Assembly: GCA_050950765.1 (NCBI GenBank)
Contig: JBMNIF010000001.1
Location: 256,001-320,000, forward strand
Direction: 5' to 3'
Length of the DNA stretch: 64,000 nt
Source: Bdellovibrionota bacterium
GTDB lineage: Bacteria; Bdellovibrionota_C; UBA2361; JAAYZI01
The position numbers are program-made. Shown one piece after another: positions 15,001-21,000 of this stretch. Every line of letters begins with the position of its first letter. The first letter of the stretch is position 1.

Positions 15001-18000
15001 GTGCCTTTGCGTGCTGCATGGTACAAAAACTTGCTTTAGTAATCTTAATTATTGGGTCTTAATGAAGAAGGAGTCTGGGGGGGAGATATTAAAAAACAGG
15101 TTATTTCAAAAGAGAGGGAAAAGTATTGATTCCTCTAAATATGAGAGTCTGGTGAAAAGATATTAAAAAACAGGTTATTTTGAGCCGTTGGGGAAATTAC
15201 CCTCCAACGGACGGTGAACGCCATTTAAAGAGGAAAAGATATTGGGAAAACAGATTGTTTCAAGAGAAGGTGCGGATGATGGTTGCGATCAAGTAGAGAT
15301 GCTGCCACTTATGCGGGAGATTTATGATTTTTGTGTTAAAGCGCGTGAGATTGATGCCTTAGAGCTGGATTTCGTCCGTCGGGGAGAAGCTTTTTTTCAT
15401 GTTTCGTGTAGCGGTCATGAAAATCTGGCGTTTCTCGGTCCTCACTTAATCGCAGATGATTATCTGCACTGCCATTATCGCGACAAAGCTTTGATGCTCT
15501 ATCGTGGGGTAACACCTAAACAATTTTTCTTAAGTTTATTTTGTAAAGATGAAAGCCATAGTCACGGCAGGCAGATGTCGGCACACATCTCAGACCGCAC
15601 TTTAAATATCCTCAGTATCGTTGGACCTGTCGGTAATAACGCTTTGCAATCCGTCGGAATCGCCTCAAAGATAAAAGATAGCCCCACCAATCCGATCGTT
15701 TATTGCGCCATAGGTGACGGCACAAGTCAGCAAGGAGAAGTGCTGGAGGGTGTCGCGCAGGCGGTGCGTTGTGAATTGCCTGTGCTGTTTGTCGTTGAAA
15801 ATAACGGTTTGGCGATATCATCTCATACGAAAGGACGAACCTTTTTTTCGAGACCAGATGGTAAGGCGGAGGAGTTCTACGGTCTTCCGATCAACTATAT
15901 TAATGGTTGCAATCCACTCGAAGTTTATAAAAAATTCGGTGCTATTGTGCAGCAGATGCGGCGAGATCGTAAACCAGCTATCGTGGTAATCGAGGTTGAG
16001 AGGTTGACTAATCACACTAATGTTGATGATCAGGAAGTTTACAGAACTTCGGATGAGATCGCGCATAACTGGGAAACATCAGACCCCATTGTGATCCTTG
16101 AAAAATGGTTGCTGGATAACGGAGTTTCGCAAGTTGAGCTAAGTGAAAATAGGGAAAAGATCAGGAGTGCACTTAAGGAAGAGGCAGAAAATGCTAGAAG
16201 TGCTAAGGAGCCGCAACCTGAGTTTACTGCTAAGGCTCCTTTGTCGGAAAAATTATTAAATTGTAAAGATTATTGTGGAGGCTCTCCTGCCAAAGGTGGC
16301 GAGGGAGAATCCCTTACCATGATCGAAGCGATTAGAGAAGTTTTGCGGTATCACTTAAAAAACGATCCCGCCGTAACACTTTACGGCGAAGATATTGAGG
16401 ATCCTAAAGGGGATGTTTTTGGTGTAACGCGGGGACTCACAGAGGAGTTCGCGGGGAGAGTTAGGAACTCTCCACTTTGCGAATCAACGATAGTAGGGTT
16501 CTCTGTCGGGGAAGCGTTGGCTGGTGGGAGACCCGTAGCGTTTTTGCAGTTCGCAGATTTTATACCGATCGCTTTTAATCAGATCAGTACTGAAATGGCG
16601 TCTATGTATTGGCGGACAGGCGGAAAATGGCAAGCTCCCGTTATTTTGATGGTTTCAATGGGTGGTTTTAAACCTGGGCTTGGGCCGTTTCACGCCGCCT
16701 CTATGGAATCAACGGTGGCACATATTCCAGGGCTAGATGTTTTCCTACCTTCAACTGCTGGTGATGCAGCAGCACTTTTAAATGCCGCTTTTGAATCAAA
16801 ACGTCCGACGGTGTTTTTCTATCCGAAAAGCCTTTTAAACAGCCGCTCTTATACCACCACCCCCGATATTGAAAAACAGATAGCGAAGATCGGCACAGCT
16901 GTGCTACGAGCTGAAGGGAGTGATCTAACGTTTGTGGGGTGGGGCAATGTTTTGCCGATCCTTGAGAAGGTTGCTGCAACGTTAGCGAAATATGATGTAA
17001 CGAGTGATGTTATAGACCTGCGCTCGATCTCTCCGTGGGATGAGTCGTTAGTGTTGGAGTCTGCACGAAAAACGGCGCGAGTTGTTATTGTATCTGAAGA
17101 AAATGGAACGGCTTCAATGGCTGCTGAAATAGCAGCAACTATCGCTGAGAAAGTAGAAGACAAGGTGCAGATAAAACGGGTCACGCGACCTGATACATTC
17201 ATCCCGTGTAATTTTGCTAATCAACTTGAGGTGCTGCCGAGTTATAAATCAACTTTAGAAGCAGCGCTTGAGCTACTTGGCGGGACAGTTGAGTGGGAAT
17301 GCGTCGATAAGGAAGGGGGCGACTATATTATTAATGCTTTAGGTGCGAGCCCTTCGGATGAATCTGTTACTATCGTTGAATGGTTTGTTAAAGCTGGTGA
17401 TGTGATAGGTCCAGGCGCGGTGCTAGCTGATGCTGAAGCGGAGAAGGCTTCCTTTTCGGTTTCTTCACCTGTTGCCGGTATGGTGCAGGCTTTACTTGTT
17501 GCGGAGGGGGAGAGCACCCATGTAGGTTCCCCATTGTTAAAAGTTTCAACTGAGAACGTTAACAAAACATATAGACCGATCACAAAAGAGGACGCAGGTT
17601 TGGCACGTATCACGCTACCTGAAAAGAGTTTGAAGAAGAGTTCAAAGCAAGAAGATCGCGCTGCACAAAAACAGGAGGTCTTGTCGACTACTGCGGGGGA
17701 TGATTTTATTGCTGGCATTGTTGCTGTAAGTGCGGTTACAGGTAGTAGAAAAGTAACGAATGAAGAGATCTCAACGAATTGTCCGACTTGGACGGCTGCA
17801 GATATCTTTAGAAGGACGGGAATTAAAAATCGTTATTGGGTAAATGATGATGAAGATGCTTTGACACTAGCGTTGCAGGCAGCGAAAGACGTGCTTAAGA
17901 AAGGTGCTATTACACTTGAAGATCTTGATATGTTGATCGTTTCAACAGGTTCTCCTATTGAGATTACGCCGTCTATGGCGTGCAGTGTTTTAAGTGGACT

Positions 18001-21000
18001 ATCAGATCCTGCGCGGTCTGCTGCTATTCCGACTTATGATATCAATGCTGCTTGTTCGGGCTACCTCTACGGCTTACTTATTGCGTATGACTTTTTAAGG
18101 TCTGTGCCGACGGGGCGAGTCCTCTTGATCACGACGGAGGTTAGTTCGGATATAGTAGATCCTGCGGATCCTGATACTGCTGCGATCTTTGGAGATGGTG
18201 CTACGGCAACACTCTTAGTCGGTGCTGAAATGCGATCACAGGCGAAACTAAAGGTGGAGCGCCCTGTGCTTGGTGCTAAAGGCGATCTTGCTAGAGTTCT
18301 GCAGATTCCAAGAGACTTAACGCACCGCATGTATATGGATGGAGTAAAAGTTTTTCCGGAAGCTGTTCGAAATATGGTGTTGTTCTTAAATAAAGCTTGC
18401 GCAGCAGCTGGGGTTAAAATTTCAGACCTTGATCGTGTTATCTCTCATCAAGCTAATCAGCGCATCCTTAATTCAATTAGTCAGAAGGCGCATCTAGCAG
18501 AAGGTGTGATGTATTCTATGATTGCAGAGTATGGAAATACATCCTCATCCTCTATCCCGTTTTGTATAGATAAATTATGGGACGATATTCAACCTGCTAA
18601 AACTTGGGGGCTATGCGCTTTTGGTGGTGGATTTACCTTCGGCGGCGCTGTGCTTAAAACGTTATAGAGTGGAGGTGTAATAGAGTAGAGGTGTAAGTAA
18701 GAGGTGCAATCGACTTCTTTATTTATTTTATTATGACCTTTTAGTCAGATGGGGGCGTTTTTTTTGGAGGTAAGAGTTTTTAAAAACTGTTTTTGTTAAT
18801 GGAGGTTGAAGAAGATGTTTTTTTAAAAGCGAACTCGGTGCCATCCTTTAGCTGGAAGCTTTAAAAAAAACTATCTAAGCTAGGGGAAGTTAGACTATAA
18901 TTTTGTTATTTGAAAAAAATTATCCGTGCTTGAAAAGTAGAAGTAATCAACTTAGCCAGGAACGTCTTCTTCCCTCATTTTGAATACGAGTATTTCATCA
19001 TCATCATCTTGATTTATTTCATCAGGATCTCTAAATCTAAGATTGTTTCGTTTAACTTTAATTAATCTTCTTATAGTAAGATCTCCTTTAGGTTCCTCCA
19101 TAGTTTCTGTCTCGCGCACTTGAGCGGCTAGCAACTCCTCATCCTCTTTATTTTTTTCTATAATTTTTTTAACTAAATCGCCAGCGCCCCCAGATCTCAA
19201 GCGTGGATGGACTCTTGCTTTTACCGTTGTTTCTACTTTAGCTTTAGCTGGCTGTCTAACTACATTTTTTGTTTCTGTTTTTGCTACTGCTTCAGTTTCT
19301 GTTTGTTGCTTTACCTTTACTGCAGTTTCTGTTGCTGTTTGTTTTGCAGGTTGTGTTTCTTTTGCTGTTTGATGCTCTGTTTCTTCTGCAGGTTGTGGCT
19401 TTGTTTGTTCTAGAGGTTTTGTCTCTGTTATGGGGGCTGTTTGCTCTGGTATTTCTTCATAAATTGGTTTTGTCTCTATTGGCTTTTGTTCTGGTATTTC
19501 TATTTCATAAATTGGTTTTGTTTCTGTTGTCGTTTCTTCTGCTCTGTTCTCTACGATCTTTGTTTGTTCTGCAACATTATTAGTCGTCGCAATGCGTGAG
19601 CCAGCGCGTGCTGCAGCGGCAGCGGTCGCCTCTCGTATTGAATTAAAAGAAGCTGGTTGTGTTAAGTCTATTTTCCCGAGTAAATGCTCTATATTTCCAA
19701 AAGAATTAGAGGTTTCTTCGCTAACCAATTTTACGACACCGGCGGGAGTTGGCTCTGGTGGTGGCGGTAGATCCATTGCATTATTGATACGATCTGCAGG
19801 TCTCTTTTTAAATTCTGCAACTGCTTTGTTTTGTCTAAAACTATCAAGCCAATTATTTACATCAAATTTCTGTTTTGGTACTTGAGACACTTTGGTTTCA
19901 GTTAAGGAATTAAATTTTTCATTGAATGCGGCACTATTTTTTTCAGCAGAAAAAGTCTGCTTTATATTTTTGAAACCGAGTTCAGAAGAGAAATTATTCT
20001 CTGTGGTAGCCTTTATTTTGTTAATCTGTCCAGATGATGGTGATGAAGAAGTACCATCGCCTAATTTAGGTAATCCTTCTGAACGTGGCTCTGACCTTAC
20101 AGAGGGACGTTGTGCATTACCTTTTGGAGCCTTTAATGGGGTAGATCTTTGTTGTGGAGTTACGGGTTTAACATTTTTTAAAAATTTTGTGATTTCTAGA
20201 TAGTCACTTTTAGAAAGAAAACCATCGTTTGCCATGTCCTTTAAAATAGTTTCGACTTCTTGAAAAGTTTTAGCACTTGATAATTCAAACCGCCGAGTTT
20301 TAAGACGAGTATCTTTGAGAATTTCTCTTGCTTTTGGAGTTAGTTGTGGAGAACTATCTCCTTTATTTGATGAGTTAAATGTTTTAGTATCTGTGTTTCC
20401 TCCTTTTTTAAACTCGGTTTCCGTAGTAGGTGTTGTGTTCTTTGGAGGAGTTTTAGGCTTTGGTTGAGCGGAGTTAACTGTTGTAGCCCTTCCTCCTGTT
20501 TGAGAAGATCCGCCTTGTGAAGCAGATGCGGTGTTTTTAGGAGGTTGTTGCTTTGAAGATACGTTACTATTTCCTTGTGGTGGGGTGGTTTTAGTTGTTG
20601 CAGAGTTTGTTCTTGTTTGAGGAGATCCGCCTTGTGAAGCAGATGCAGAGTTTGTTCCCATTATAAATCCGTCTAAATCGAAAGAAGATAGGGATTCTTT
20701 CAACCAATAGCGAACCTCACCTATTGTTAACAGTTCGTCCAGTTTTTGCGCCTTCCGAAGTTCTATTTTTAGCTTATTAGGAACTTCAGGATGCTTAAGA
20801 AGGATGTTTGTTTGGCGAGGGGTTAATTTTTGCTGGTTTAAACTCTGTAAAAATATTGTTGTCTTCTCTGTTGGTGCAGAAACAGTTGAAGGATTTGGAG
20901 CTTTTCCTGCTTGTTTGAAAAAGTTGTCCAAGCTGTGATTTTGTGGCTTAGCAGAGGGAACTGGAGATGATTCTCCAGTTGAAAGAGAGTTGCTATTAAC

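Follow-up and report, generated by a model that had tools for sequence, protein, structure and literature searches.

The window analysed here, a stretch of 64,000 nucleotides from the genome of a Bdellovibrionota bacterium, contains at 15242..18667 on the forward strand one intact open reading frame of 1141 residues, with a TTG start and its stop codon included. What reads as a Shine–Dalgarno-like AAAGAGGA lies at 15227..15234 (+), 7 nt 5′ of the TTG. Pfam and NCBIfam matches lay out the product, all on the same strand, as an E1α part (residues 32–327, 15335..16222; E1_dh, 1e-40), an E1β part (residues 357–661, 16310..17224) that comprises Transket_pyr (357–533, 5.2e-27) and Transketolase_C (551–661, 7.1e-24), a lipoyl domain (residues 707–767, 17360..17542; Biotin_lipoyl, 1.4e-11) and a KAS III/FabH domain (residues 824–1139, 17711..18658), the last also recognised in a search of PDB sequences and made up of ACP_syn_III (932–997, 1.8e-18) and ACP_syn_III_C (1053–1139, 1.1e-20). 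The earlier note had described just such an E1αβ–lipoyl–FabH fusion, and both its length and the order of its six Pfam domains hold. The lipoyl and KAS III domains are joined by a linker (residues 768–826, 17543..17719) that the family alignment shows to be variable; across the family it spans 44–81 residues, with a median of 55, and is poorly conserved and enriched in Ala, Gly and Pro. The protein gave no Pfam match at E ≤ 0.01 to the peripheral-subunit-binding domain (E3_binding, PF02817) or to the E2 catalytic core (2-oxoacid_dh, PF00198). The gene stands alone in this genome.

The E1 parts score 140, 95 and 84.5 bits for E1_dh, Transket_pyr and Transketolase_C, against Pfam cut-offs of 22, 27 and 25.9. 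Gly158, Asp/Glu159, Gly160 and Asn188 occur in 120 of 120 family members, and they fit GDG...N(N), the motif by which ThDP is bound. His258, Asp262 and Tyr267 of E1α and Glu414 and His484 of E1β are invariant in the same 120 sequences; judged by motif, they may correspond to the active-site His of E1α with its H-x-x-x-D-D loop and to the Glu and His that E1β uses in reductive acylation. Among solved chains, E1α is closest to the Thermus 2-oxo acid dehydrogenase (1um9_A, 1.2e-33), followed by human BCKDH (8e-25) and Geobacillus PDH (4e-22), and E1β matches 1um9_B at 7.8e-60 versus 2.2e-54 for Geobacillus PDH. The best NCBIfam matches of the E1 part are PDH models, far under their cut-offs. The Thermus BCKDH-type match is the best and Geobacillus PDH is close for E1β, so that the E1 may be of either type. 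The lipoyl domain reaches 44.5 bits against PF00364, and Lys735 (codon 17444..17446), within E732-A-(D/E)-K735-A736, is present in all 120 aligned members, as are Glu732 and Ala736. In this protein it lies in AEAEKAS, where the lipoyl lysine had been placed before; this is a (D/E)-K-A motif of the lipoyl type, unlike the biotinyl M-K-M, and Lys735 is the presumed lipoylation site.

At the C-terminal end, the NCBIfam FabH model PRK09352 covers residues 824–1139 at 243.1 bits, just under its cut-off of 249; a second FabH model, TIGR00747, gives 207.3 bits and does not reach its cut-off of 292.1. Residues 820–1141 match 39 FabH-type PDB sequences at E ≤ 1e-20, the best being 2ebd_A (5.2e-41). Cys938 (codon 18053..18055), His1069 (18446..18448) and Asn1099 (18536..18538) align with Cys112, His244 and Asn274 of E. 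coli FabH, a triad that is invariant in 120 of 120 fused members, as is Arg1074, the equivalent of Arg249, which we take to be the ACP-docking residue of the E. coli enzyme. The site that receives CoA differs. The adenine in CoA-bound E. coli FabH is described as stacked between Trp32 and Arg151 (PMC4606726); this protein has Asp854 and Pro977 at those positions. As a paired control, the 120 fused KAS III domains were set against 20 standalone FabHs, of which 18 come from genomes that carry the fusion and 2 from members of this order. Trp32 is present in every standalone enzyme, and Arg151 in 18, the remaining two having Lys. Among the fused domains, the commonest residues at the Trp32 position are Asp (86), Glu (22), Lys (6) and Gly (4), with no Trp among the residues listed, and the four commonest residues at the Arg151 position, Pro (56), Tyr (16), Lys (12) and Phe (11), account for 95 of the 120, with no Arg among these. 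Cys112, His244, Asn274 and Arg249 are kept in every sequence of both sets. Judged from this alignment, the adenine-stacking pair is absent in the 120 fused domains examined, and the CoA adenine site is lost. This contrast in conservation, with the triad, Arg249 and Lys735 kept and the Trp32/Arg151 pair lost, is a new result of our analysis.

Further replacements surround the tunnel. Phe87, presumably a primer-pocket residue of FabH, is Thr in 117 of the 120 fused domains, a change that points to a roomier primer pocket. The aligned fused clade also has a remodelled tunnel mouth, with Lys35, Pro210, Glu40 and Leu/Gln214, and its basic patch shows Arg40 replaced by Glu in 95 sequences, Lys214 by Leu or Gln in 92 and Lys256 by Gln in 107 of 120, changes that could affect ACP docking as well. 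In a quick tree, all 58 lipoyl-linked KAS III sequences fall into a single clade, with an SH-aLRT support of 99 and with the 21 canonical FabHs outside it, and the two earliest-branching fused members, P0283 and P0287, retain Trp32. The branch of the protein under study measures 0.63 in the same tree, against 0.28 and 0.35 for its nearest relatives, and such a length would suit a decaying relic without function. That the fusion in this genome is such a relic seems extremely improbable to us, since the frame is intact, all family-invariant columns are kept and, as a weak indication, pieces of contigs from RNA libraries, at least 99% alike, fall inside the gene.

The genome is 94% complete. A six-frame search with PF00198 found no E2 at E ≤ 1, while the control gave matches in 10 of 14 genomes, in agreement with the earlier note; the wide presence of E2 in the order that it reported also stands, although its count of 82 of 90 genomes becomes 86 of 91 here (E ≤ 1e-5, this genome included in the 91). 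The lipoyl-type domains found are those of the fusion and of a 127-aa GcvH, the only two acceptors claimed previously; a third strong match to the lipoyl model, in a protein from a 155-aa frame, appears BCCP-like from its size and score. GcvT and GcvP were not found. Lpd and LipB are adjacent (contig C1, 234786–236892) and LipA lies on contig C3, so that all three were rightly listed as kept, but the retention of LipA and Lpd had also been counted as support for the fusion, and here it is not specific: four relatives without E2, GcvT or the fusion retain both. A second E1 pair lies at 467582–469506 of contig C2.

As for fatty-acid synthesis, FabD, FabG, AcpP, FabF, FabZ and AccA are present, as is BCAT, and this genome yielded no homologue of MadA/YiiD and no FabH besides the fusion; the one further KAS III that it encodes is OleA, within an OleA–OleBC–OleD olefin cluster. 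FabF- or FabB-type initiation is described from elsewhere (PMC10869286), so the fusion as sole initiator here is a proposal. PlsX was not found though PlsY is present, and with a completeness of 94%, the 6% unassembled could hide lipid genes. The genome also encodes PFOR and two further POR_N-bearing frames, OFOR-like by domain only, so that the supply of acyl-CoA is already covered.

The database search returned 1648 homologues at E ≤ 1e-20 among 8000 proteins scored, and the best 120 of these all have the six domains in 1092–1162 aa. Of 50 further genomes that carry the fusion, 48 encode an E2 catalytic domain and 44 an intact standalone FabH of at least 300 bits; a trans-acting E2 and an ordinary acyl-CoA route may therefore operate there. 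Being E2-less is special to this genome, not a family trait. The presence of at least one E2 core in those 48 carriers would accord with a fusion that serves co-localisation only, its KAS III using acyl-CoA as any FabH does and its E1–lipoyl part working with a separate E2. We consider this very unlikely, because E2 is missing from this genome as well as from the carriers G027 and G032 (completeness of both not established), the fusion has no peripheral-subunit-binding domain, the CoA adenine site is lost and every full-length member has its lipoyl domain and KAS III on one covalent chain. The absence of GcvT and GcvP, the second KAS III and the presence of E2 and FabH in most carriers had all been missed by the earlier note.

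A domain search of 27 proteins built on the E1αβ–lipoyl scaffold showed that the place of FabH can be taken by other domains. It is occupied by an E2 catalytic domain in P0271, P0303, P0304, P0317–P0320, P0324, P0333 and P0341, by an E2 core with ACP in P0326 and by a thioesterase in P0269; P0305 carries E2 core–ACP–KS...C–A on the same scaffold, and P0246 is E1αβ–lipoyl–KAS III–KR–ACP.

We modestly favour, from the conserved residues and the domain architecture, a direct transfer of the acyl group from the lipoyl arm to FabH and its condensation with malonyl-ACP, without E2 or CoA. The fusion would be a self-contained E1–lipoyl–KAS III enzyme, probably dimeric. Its E1αβ part would bind thiamine diphosphate, decarboxylate a 2-oxoacid (probably branched-chain, such as the BCAT products of Val, Leu and Ile) and reductively acylate Lys735 of its own chain; the S-acyl-dihydrolipoyl arm would then enter the KAS III tunnel on its long flexible linker and hand its acyl group over to Cys938, so that KAS III would stand in for the missing E2 core. 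His1069 and Asn1099 would decarboxylate malonyl-ACP to give a 3-ketoacyl-ACP for elongation by FabG, FabZ and FabF, and free Lpd would reoxidise the arm with NAD+. Acyl-CoA would be neither made nor consumed at any step. The earlier note had proposed such priming, and the invariant catalytic and lipoyl residues, the loss of the CoA site in the fused clade, the E2 cores at the sister position, P0246 and, for this genome, the lack of an E2 and of a second FabH favour it; the arguments from a missing E2 and a sole FabH do not carry over to the family, and that from LipA and Lpd is not specific.

Alternatively, the KAS III domain might be mainly an E2 substitute that hands the acyl group from the arm to free CoA, which would reverse the first half-reaction of FabH, or as a transacylase to holo-ACP, making the protein a compact 2-oxoacid dehydrogenase with acyl-CoA or acyl-ACP as its product rather than a condensing enzyme. 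FabH acyl-enzyme formation is reversible, and the complete lack of E2 in this genome and the E2 cores at the same position in sister proteins would agree with such a role. Even so, we judge it quite improbable: the CoA-adenine stacking pair is gone, the equivalents of His244 and Asn274 are invariant and are needed for malonyl decarboxylation, not for transacylation, PFOR and the two POR_N-bearing frames already provide acyl-CoA, and P0246 adds KR and ACP behind its KAS III, which fits a condensation product.

The chemistry could also be as proposed while the product stays out of housekeeping fatty-acid synthesis and primes a special lipid or polyketide-like compound. Branched or hydroxylated acyl chains destined for ornithine lipids or olefins would be examples, and a carrier of their own might bear them. 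The neighbourhoods of the gene bear on this reading. In the Rhizobium group, the gene immediately upstream belongs to the fatty-acid-hydroxylase family in 8 of 8 loci, and an OlsC-like hydroxylase follows downstream in 7 of 8, with a ClC channel next to it in 5 of 8; a sycA–olsC cluster is described from R. tropici (PMC5936775). The ordinary FabH of 44 in 50 carriers, which makes the fusion usually an extra, the KR and ACP of P0246 and the Ole cluster of this genome point the same way. Against this, no conserved neighbourhood was found outside Rhizobium among the 80 loci compared, the gene stands alone here and this genome yielded no further initiator of the FabH type; we hold a special product to be rather unlikely. 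A Leu/Val-dehydrogenase-like gene adjoins the fusion in 2 of the 80 loci (L031 and L063). Under the direct transfer that we favour, the fusion would serve this genome as its sole initiator of the FabH type, and in most other carriers it would work alongside an ordinary FabH, probably supplying special (branched) primers or a special lipid.

If this is true, fatty-acid (or lipid) chains start from 2-oxoacids with no CoA thioester anywhere. A literature search found no description of an E1αβ–lipoyl–FabH fusion, and our results suggest an apparently undescribed route to start fatty acids from a 2-oxoacid without CoA. The wider proposition, to which we give an even chance, is that a thiolase-fold condensing enzyme naturally receives its acyl group from protein-bound S-acyl-dihydrolipoyl-lysine, that E1αβ–lipoyl is a general loading platform whose unloading domain evolution has swapped and that ordinary FabH has been replaced altogether in this anaerobic-digester bacterium. 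With the scales similarly level, the unloading domains would be, as in the sister proteins, an E2 core, an E2 core with ACP in PKS/NRPS lines, a thioesterase or a KAS III.

Alternative starts of type II fatty-acid synthesis are known, among them the FabH-independent initiation by FabY of P. aeruginosa. The malonyl-ACP decarboxylase MadA/YiiD and FabB of Pseudomonas putida F1 are described as further FabH-independent starts (PMC8666670, PMC10869286). The fusion resembles MadA/YiiD, FabB and FabY as an alternative start, but none of them is known to begin with a 2-oxoacid or to employ a lipoyl arm. Compared with E. coli FabH and other KAS III enzymes (1HND, 1HNJ, 2ebd), the fused domain is 27% identical to the E. 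coli protein over the whole domain and keeps the triad and Arg249, but it forms a separate clade, stays below the FabH model cut-off (243.1 against 249 bits), has its CoA adenine residues replaced and has a remodelled tunnel mouth. With the E2 dihydrolipoyl acyltransferases of PDH, OGDH and BCKDH (lipoyl domain or domains, PSBD and PF00198), it shares a lipoyl domain, a linker and a domain that would unload the arm, and single-chain E1αβ–lipoyl–E2 core relatives exist; the E2 core is chloramphenicol-acetyltransferase-like and its acceptor is CoA, whereas the unloading domain of the fusion is a thiolase-fold KAS III whose acceptor is probably malonyl-ACP, with formation of a carbon–carbon bond. 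In Bacillus, Staphylococcus and Listeria, the branched-chain 2-oxoacid dehydrogenase complex (E1 α2β2, E2 and E3) feeds FabH via acyl-CoA. The fusion matches that system in its lipoyl arm and its Cys-His-Asn KAS III, probably in its E1 type (best solved match 1um9) and, as proposed, in E3 reoxidation and in KAS III as end user of the acyl group, but it dispenses with the E2 core, the peripheral-subunit-binding domain and, as proposed, the CoA step, has lost Trp32 and Arg151, and unites its parts in one chain.

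The fusion gene is a single unbroken frame of 1141 codons (15242–18667, + strand) that opens with a TTG start, 7 nt from the 3′ end of an upstream AAAGAGGA run. Pfam places E1_dh at residues 32–327 (1e-40), Transket_pyr at 357–533, Transketolase_C at 551–661, Biotin_lipoyl at 707–767 (1.4e-11), ACP_syn_III at 932–997 and ACP_syn_III_C at 1053–1139; at E ≤ 0.01 it finds neither an E2 catalytic domain nor an E3-binding domain in the protein. Residues 824–1139 score 243.1 bits against the NCBIfam FabH model, slightly below its cut-off of 249, and a search of solved structures with the last 322 residues gives 39 FabH-type sequences at E ≤ 1e-20, with 2ebd_A at the top (5.2e-41). 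These matches, together with the intact frame, bear out the six-domain, single-ORF architecture described in the earlier note. The closest solved E1 halves are those of the Thermus thermophilus 2-oxo acid dehydrogenase E1 (1um9_A, 1.2e-33; 1um9_B, 7.8e-60), followed by human BCKDH and Geobacillus PDH E1, and on account of this ranking the substrate class is probably branched-chain.

The gene stands isolated, with a 1.1-kb spacer on its 5′ side and an opposite-strand open frame of 2886 codons (18952–27612, −) directly 3′. Rfam, searched for a riboswitch or leader 5′ of the gene, gives only a tRNA (14335–14407) within the spacer; plsY (11420–12049, −) lies farther upstream. The same region holds an IS1634-family transposase (8500–10023, −; 237 bits), a 36-nt direct repeat present twice just 5′ of the gene (15071–15106 and 15145–15180, 89% alike, 74 nt apart) and GGTACCACCCACCAG-like repeats of 16–18 nt at 14621–14848, and the repeats match no Rfam family.

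Of 8000 proteins scored in a search with the full-length protein, 1648 reach E ≤ 1e-20. The top 120 all carry the six domains in 1092–1162 aa and are named 'beta-ketoacyl-ACP synthase 3', 'thiamine pyrophosphate-dependent enzyme', 'transketolase' or '2-oxoisovalerate dehydrogenase E1 component', and nothing else. The ThDP motif (G158, G160, N188), H258, D262, Y267, E414 and H484 of the E1 part, E732, K735 and A736 of the lipoyl domain and C938, H1069 and N1099 of the KAS III domain are unchanged in all 120. The linker between the lipoyl and KAS III domains has a median length of 55 residues (range 44–81) and is poorly conserved, with a mean top-residue frequency of 0.36 versus 0.64–0.77 in the domains, whereas the connection from E1 beta to the lipoyl domain is conserved at a constant 37–39 residues. 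Because one connection is variable and the other fixed, the anatomy appears to be that of a swinging arm that is anchored at E1 and can reach a mobile KAS III. In the best supported reading, towards which we lean, a 2-oxoacid would supply the acyl group with which the fused E1 charges its own lipoyl arm, the KAS III domain would receive that group directly on Cys938 and join it with malonyl-ACP, and the arm would be reoxidized by Lpd. Six contig pieces of 132–196 nt from metatranscriptome-labelled runs (three runs, two studies) lie inside the gene at ≥99% likeness, with none in the compared flanks; such libraries can contain DNA, and the pieces are only a weak hint of expression. Set beside the unbroken frame and the invariant residues, the idea that the gene is a relic is scarcely credible.

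We found no family form longer than 1997 aa, which is weak evidence. Among the shorter matches, a 'split' lipoyl–KAS III form (P0192) is probably a frameshift artefact and was set aside, since 15 of 25 metagenome loci with its relatives encode all parts in one open frame of 1069 aa or more and two are frameshifted (L120, L127); six others are cut by contig ends and two are ordinary FabH. This check covered relatives of P0192, with P0141, P0226 and P0332 left out. The literature searched gave no description of the fusion, and papers elsewhere could exist; the part of a verrucomicrobial preprint that was consulted describes the ordinary BKD–FabH route only.

We aligned E. coli FabH, whose numbering is used here, with the 120 fused KAS III domains and with 20 standalone FabHs, of which 18 are from genomes that carry the fusion and two from the order of the genome under study. 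Cys112, His244, Asn274, Asn247 and Arg249, the last of which we take to be the ACP-docking residue, are kept in all 140 domains. The standalone FabHs have Trp32 in 20 of 20 and Arg (18) or Lys (2) at position 151. PMC4606726 describes the adenine ring of CoA bound to E. coli FabH as sandwiched by Trp32 and Arg151, with a hydrogen bond to Thr28. Position 32 of the 120 fused domains is most often Asp (86), Glu (22), Lys (6) or Gly (4) and never Trp, and the four commonest residues at position 151 are Pro (56), Tyr (16), Lys (12) and Phe (11). The tunnel mouth is also altered in the fused domains, with Lys35 in 112, Pro210 in 106, Glu40 in 95, Leu or Gln214 in 92 and Thr87 in 117. A domain whose donor is no longer CoA and whose extender is still malonyl-ACP would be expected to lose the nucleotide site and to keep the decarboxylation residues and Arg249 in full, and this is the pattern seen. 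Two observations speak against a simple loss-of-CoA story: Trp32 is retained in P0283 and P0287, the two deepest-branching fused members, and some basic residues with a presumed part in ACP docking are altered. In a quick maximum-likelihood tree of 80 rows (32 fused domains, 26 hand-picked short, long or distant forms, 21 canonical FabHs and OleA), all 58 lipoyl-linked domains form one clade (SH-aLRT 99, stem 0.81), separate from every canonical FabH.

Further indications come from 27 proteins of the homologue lists that we scanned with Pfam for the domain following E1ab–lipoyl. That domain is an E2 catalytic core in P0271, P0303, P0304, P0317–P0320, P0324, P0333 and P0341, an E2 core plus ACP in P0326 (1227 aa) and a thioesterase in P0269 (1091 aa); P0305 (2895 aa) continues along a PKS/NRPS line as E2 core–ACP–KS–methyltransferase–C–A, and P0270 and P0275 have nothing recognizable there. 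Since an E2 core, an E2 core with ACP or a thioesterase occupies it in relatives, the slot after the lipoyl domain would seem to be that of an arm-unloading domain. P0246 (1942 aa) continues after E1ab–lipoyl–KAS III with a KR of PKS type and an ACP, the reductase and carrier that a condensation product would need. To judge from their domain order, P0246, P0305, P0326 and P0269 look like 2-oxoacid-fed loading modules; a literature search on 2-oxoacid dehydrogenase-type loading modules in general, in which these architectures were not queried by name, found nothing on point. The same slot bears on a second reading, in which the KAS III domain performs an E2-like transfer to CoA or ACP. True E2 cores stand in this position in relatives; the fused domains at large have lost the nucleotide site and kept the residues for decarboxylation, and we consider such a transfer distinctly unlikely.

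Direct transfer from lipoyl to KAS III can also be set against the gene content of the genome under study (five contigs, 2.64 Mb, 94% completeness, 1.55% contamination), near-identical DNA of which occurs in runs labelled anaerobic digester, bioreactor, biogas fermenter and wastewater (nine rows beyond possible sources; seven named studies, one row naming none). Six-frame searches returned no PF00198 E2 core at E ≤ 1, confirming the absence of E2 that had been claimed, and no GcvT, GcvP or AceE/AceF homologue; a MadA/YiiD homologue was likewise not found in the genome. Present are PFOR (a 1181-aa frame) and two more POR_N-bearing frames, a branched-chain aminotransferase, FabD, FabG, AcpP, FabF, FabZ and AccA, Lpd adjoining LipB, LipA, and an orphan GcvH of 127 aa. 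With E. coli FabH as query, the top match is the fusion itself (27% identity). In this 94% complete genome the fusion is therefore the sole initiator of FabH type, no other enzyme bears a lipoyl domain, and there is no E2 to unload the one it has.

The only other KAS III (353 aa; NCBIfam PRK09258, 348.9 bits) is OleA-like and lies outside the window. After it come an alpha/beta-hydrolase::AMP-ligase fusion (847 aa, OleB–OleC-like; 400 bits with the olefin beta-lactone synthetase model, under cut-off) and an OleD-like reductase (325 aa, 2-alkyl-3-oxoalkanoate-reductase-like; 362 bits, under cut-off), and from these matches we read the three genes as a complete OleA–OleBC–OleD olefin-type cluster (C1:370718–375646; loci L002 and L095). 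A second E1 alpha/beta pair (C2:467582–469506; locus L094, 5583–7507; 314 and 327 aa) scores far under the PDH cut-offs (171.8 versus 393.85 and 185.5 versus 321), has a peptidase and an integrase as neighbours and no E2 alongside, and might use the lipoyl arm of the fusion or do something else. PlsX is found nowhere in the genome, though PlsY is present; in the sister genome G073, plsX lies directly ahead of fabG–acpP, where the genome under study is contiguous and has an unrelated 241-aa frame ahead of fabG. There is no E. coli-type FabI, and the candidate enoyl-ACP reductase is a weak NMO/FabK-like match of 85 bits. C3:161606–165195 carries another set, of two FabF-like ketosynthases with a FabG-like reductase, which may form a distinct lipid or aryl-polyene-type cluster.

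Other carriers differ in these respects. An intact standalone FabH scoring 300 bits or more accompanies the fusion in 44 of 50 further carrier genomes, and one more has such a FabH interrupted by two in-frame TGA codons; the remaining five have none (G006), matches of about 255 bits (G011, G021) or fragments (G043, G050). At least one E2 core is present in 48 of the 50 and was not found in G027 and G032, neither of which has a completeness figure. The description 'E2-less, sole FabH' thus holds for the genome under study but not as a general rule, and most carriers have the fusion as an extra. Were the domains merely co-localized, with an E2 working in trans, the partner would be at hand in those 48 genomes and is missing from the one studied here; we regard this as very improbable. 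Within the order (91 genomes, 86 with PF00198), the fusion occurs only in the genome under study and in G052, neither of which has a standalone FabH over the cut-off, while G073, the sole other genome of the family (85% complete), has ordinary FabH, E2 and GcvT and no fusion-length match. For these reasons it looks as though an acquired fusion displaced the ordinary FabH in this lineage. The fusion is 48.6% identical to the G052 copy versus 54–60% to its best matches elsewhere. In a synteny look for fabH loss, the fabH flanks of G060, G070 and G051 were not colinear with the genome under study, and fabH of G073 lies on a 2.1-kb contig. The earlier note had counted the kept LipA and E3 as support, an argument that fails because G053–G056, four small genomes of another family in the order, keep LipA, Lpd and a GcvH-like gene with no E2 core, GcvT or fusion; retention of LipA and Lpd cannot therefore be credited to the fusion.

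Species-representative genomes (one per species) contain 548 stretches coding for a relative, the best 80 of which come from Spirochaetes, Pirellulaceae and other Planctomycetota, Verrucomicrobiota, Armatimonadota, Syntrophobacteraceae, Pontiella and others, as well as Rhizobium (rhizogenes, leucaenae, lusitanum, tropici), Devosia and the cyanobacterium Xenococcus. The neighbourhoods are mostly unconserved, with two exceptions. At two loci, L031 of Xenococcus and L063 of a Pirellulales genome, a Leu/Val-dehydrogenase-like gene adjoins the fusion, and a branched 2-oxoacid substrate fits such a neighbour. In the Rhizobium group (L064, L065, L067, L068, L069, L073, L080, L089), a fatty-acid-hydroxylase-family gene lies directly upstream in 8/8 loci, an OlsC-like Asp/Asn hydroxylase downstream in 7/8 and a ClC channel in 5/8; these surroundings are the sycA–olsC ornithine-lipid region known from R. 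tropici (PMC5936775). They bear on a reading with the same chemistry in which the product feeds a special lipid. Elsewhere the flanks share little, and in the genome under study no other FabH-type initiator is present; we think this outcome rather unlikely.

If direct transfer from lipoyl to KAS III is correct, amino-acid catabolism would be linked to membrane-lipid composition within one polypeptide, and a single-chain module from 2-oxoacid to branched 3-ketoacyl-ACP would be of interest for engineering branched fatty acids and fuels. The question can be put directly to a single recombinant protein, and the family is large and includes cultured Rhizobium strains, among the carriers R. leucaenae USDA 9039 and R. 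lusitanum P1-7, which opens it to genetic testing. To our knowledge, the FabH primer in textbook routes is always an acyl-CoA, and 2-oxoacid dehydrogenases always unload the lipoyl arm through an E2 core. Compared with these, the fusion, if it works in this way, would present condensing enzymes with an acyl donor of a third kind and give fatty-acid synthesis a new start.
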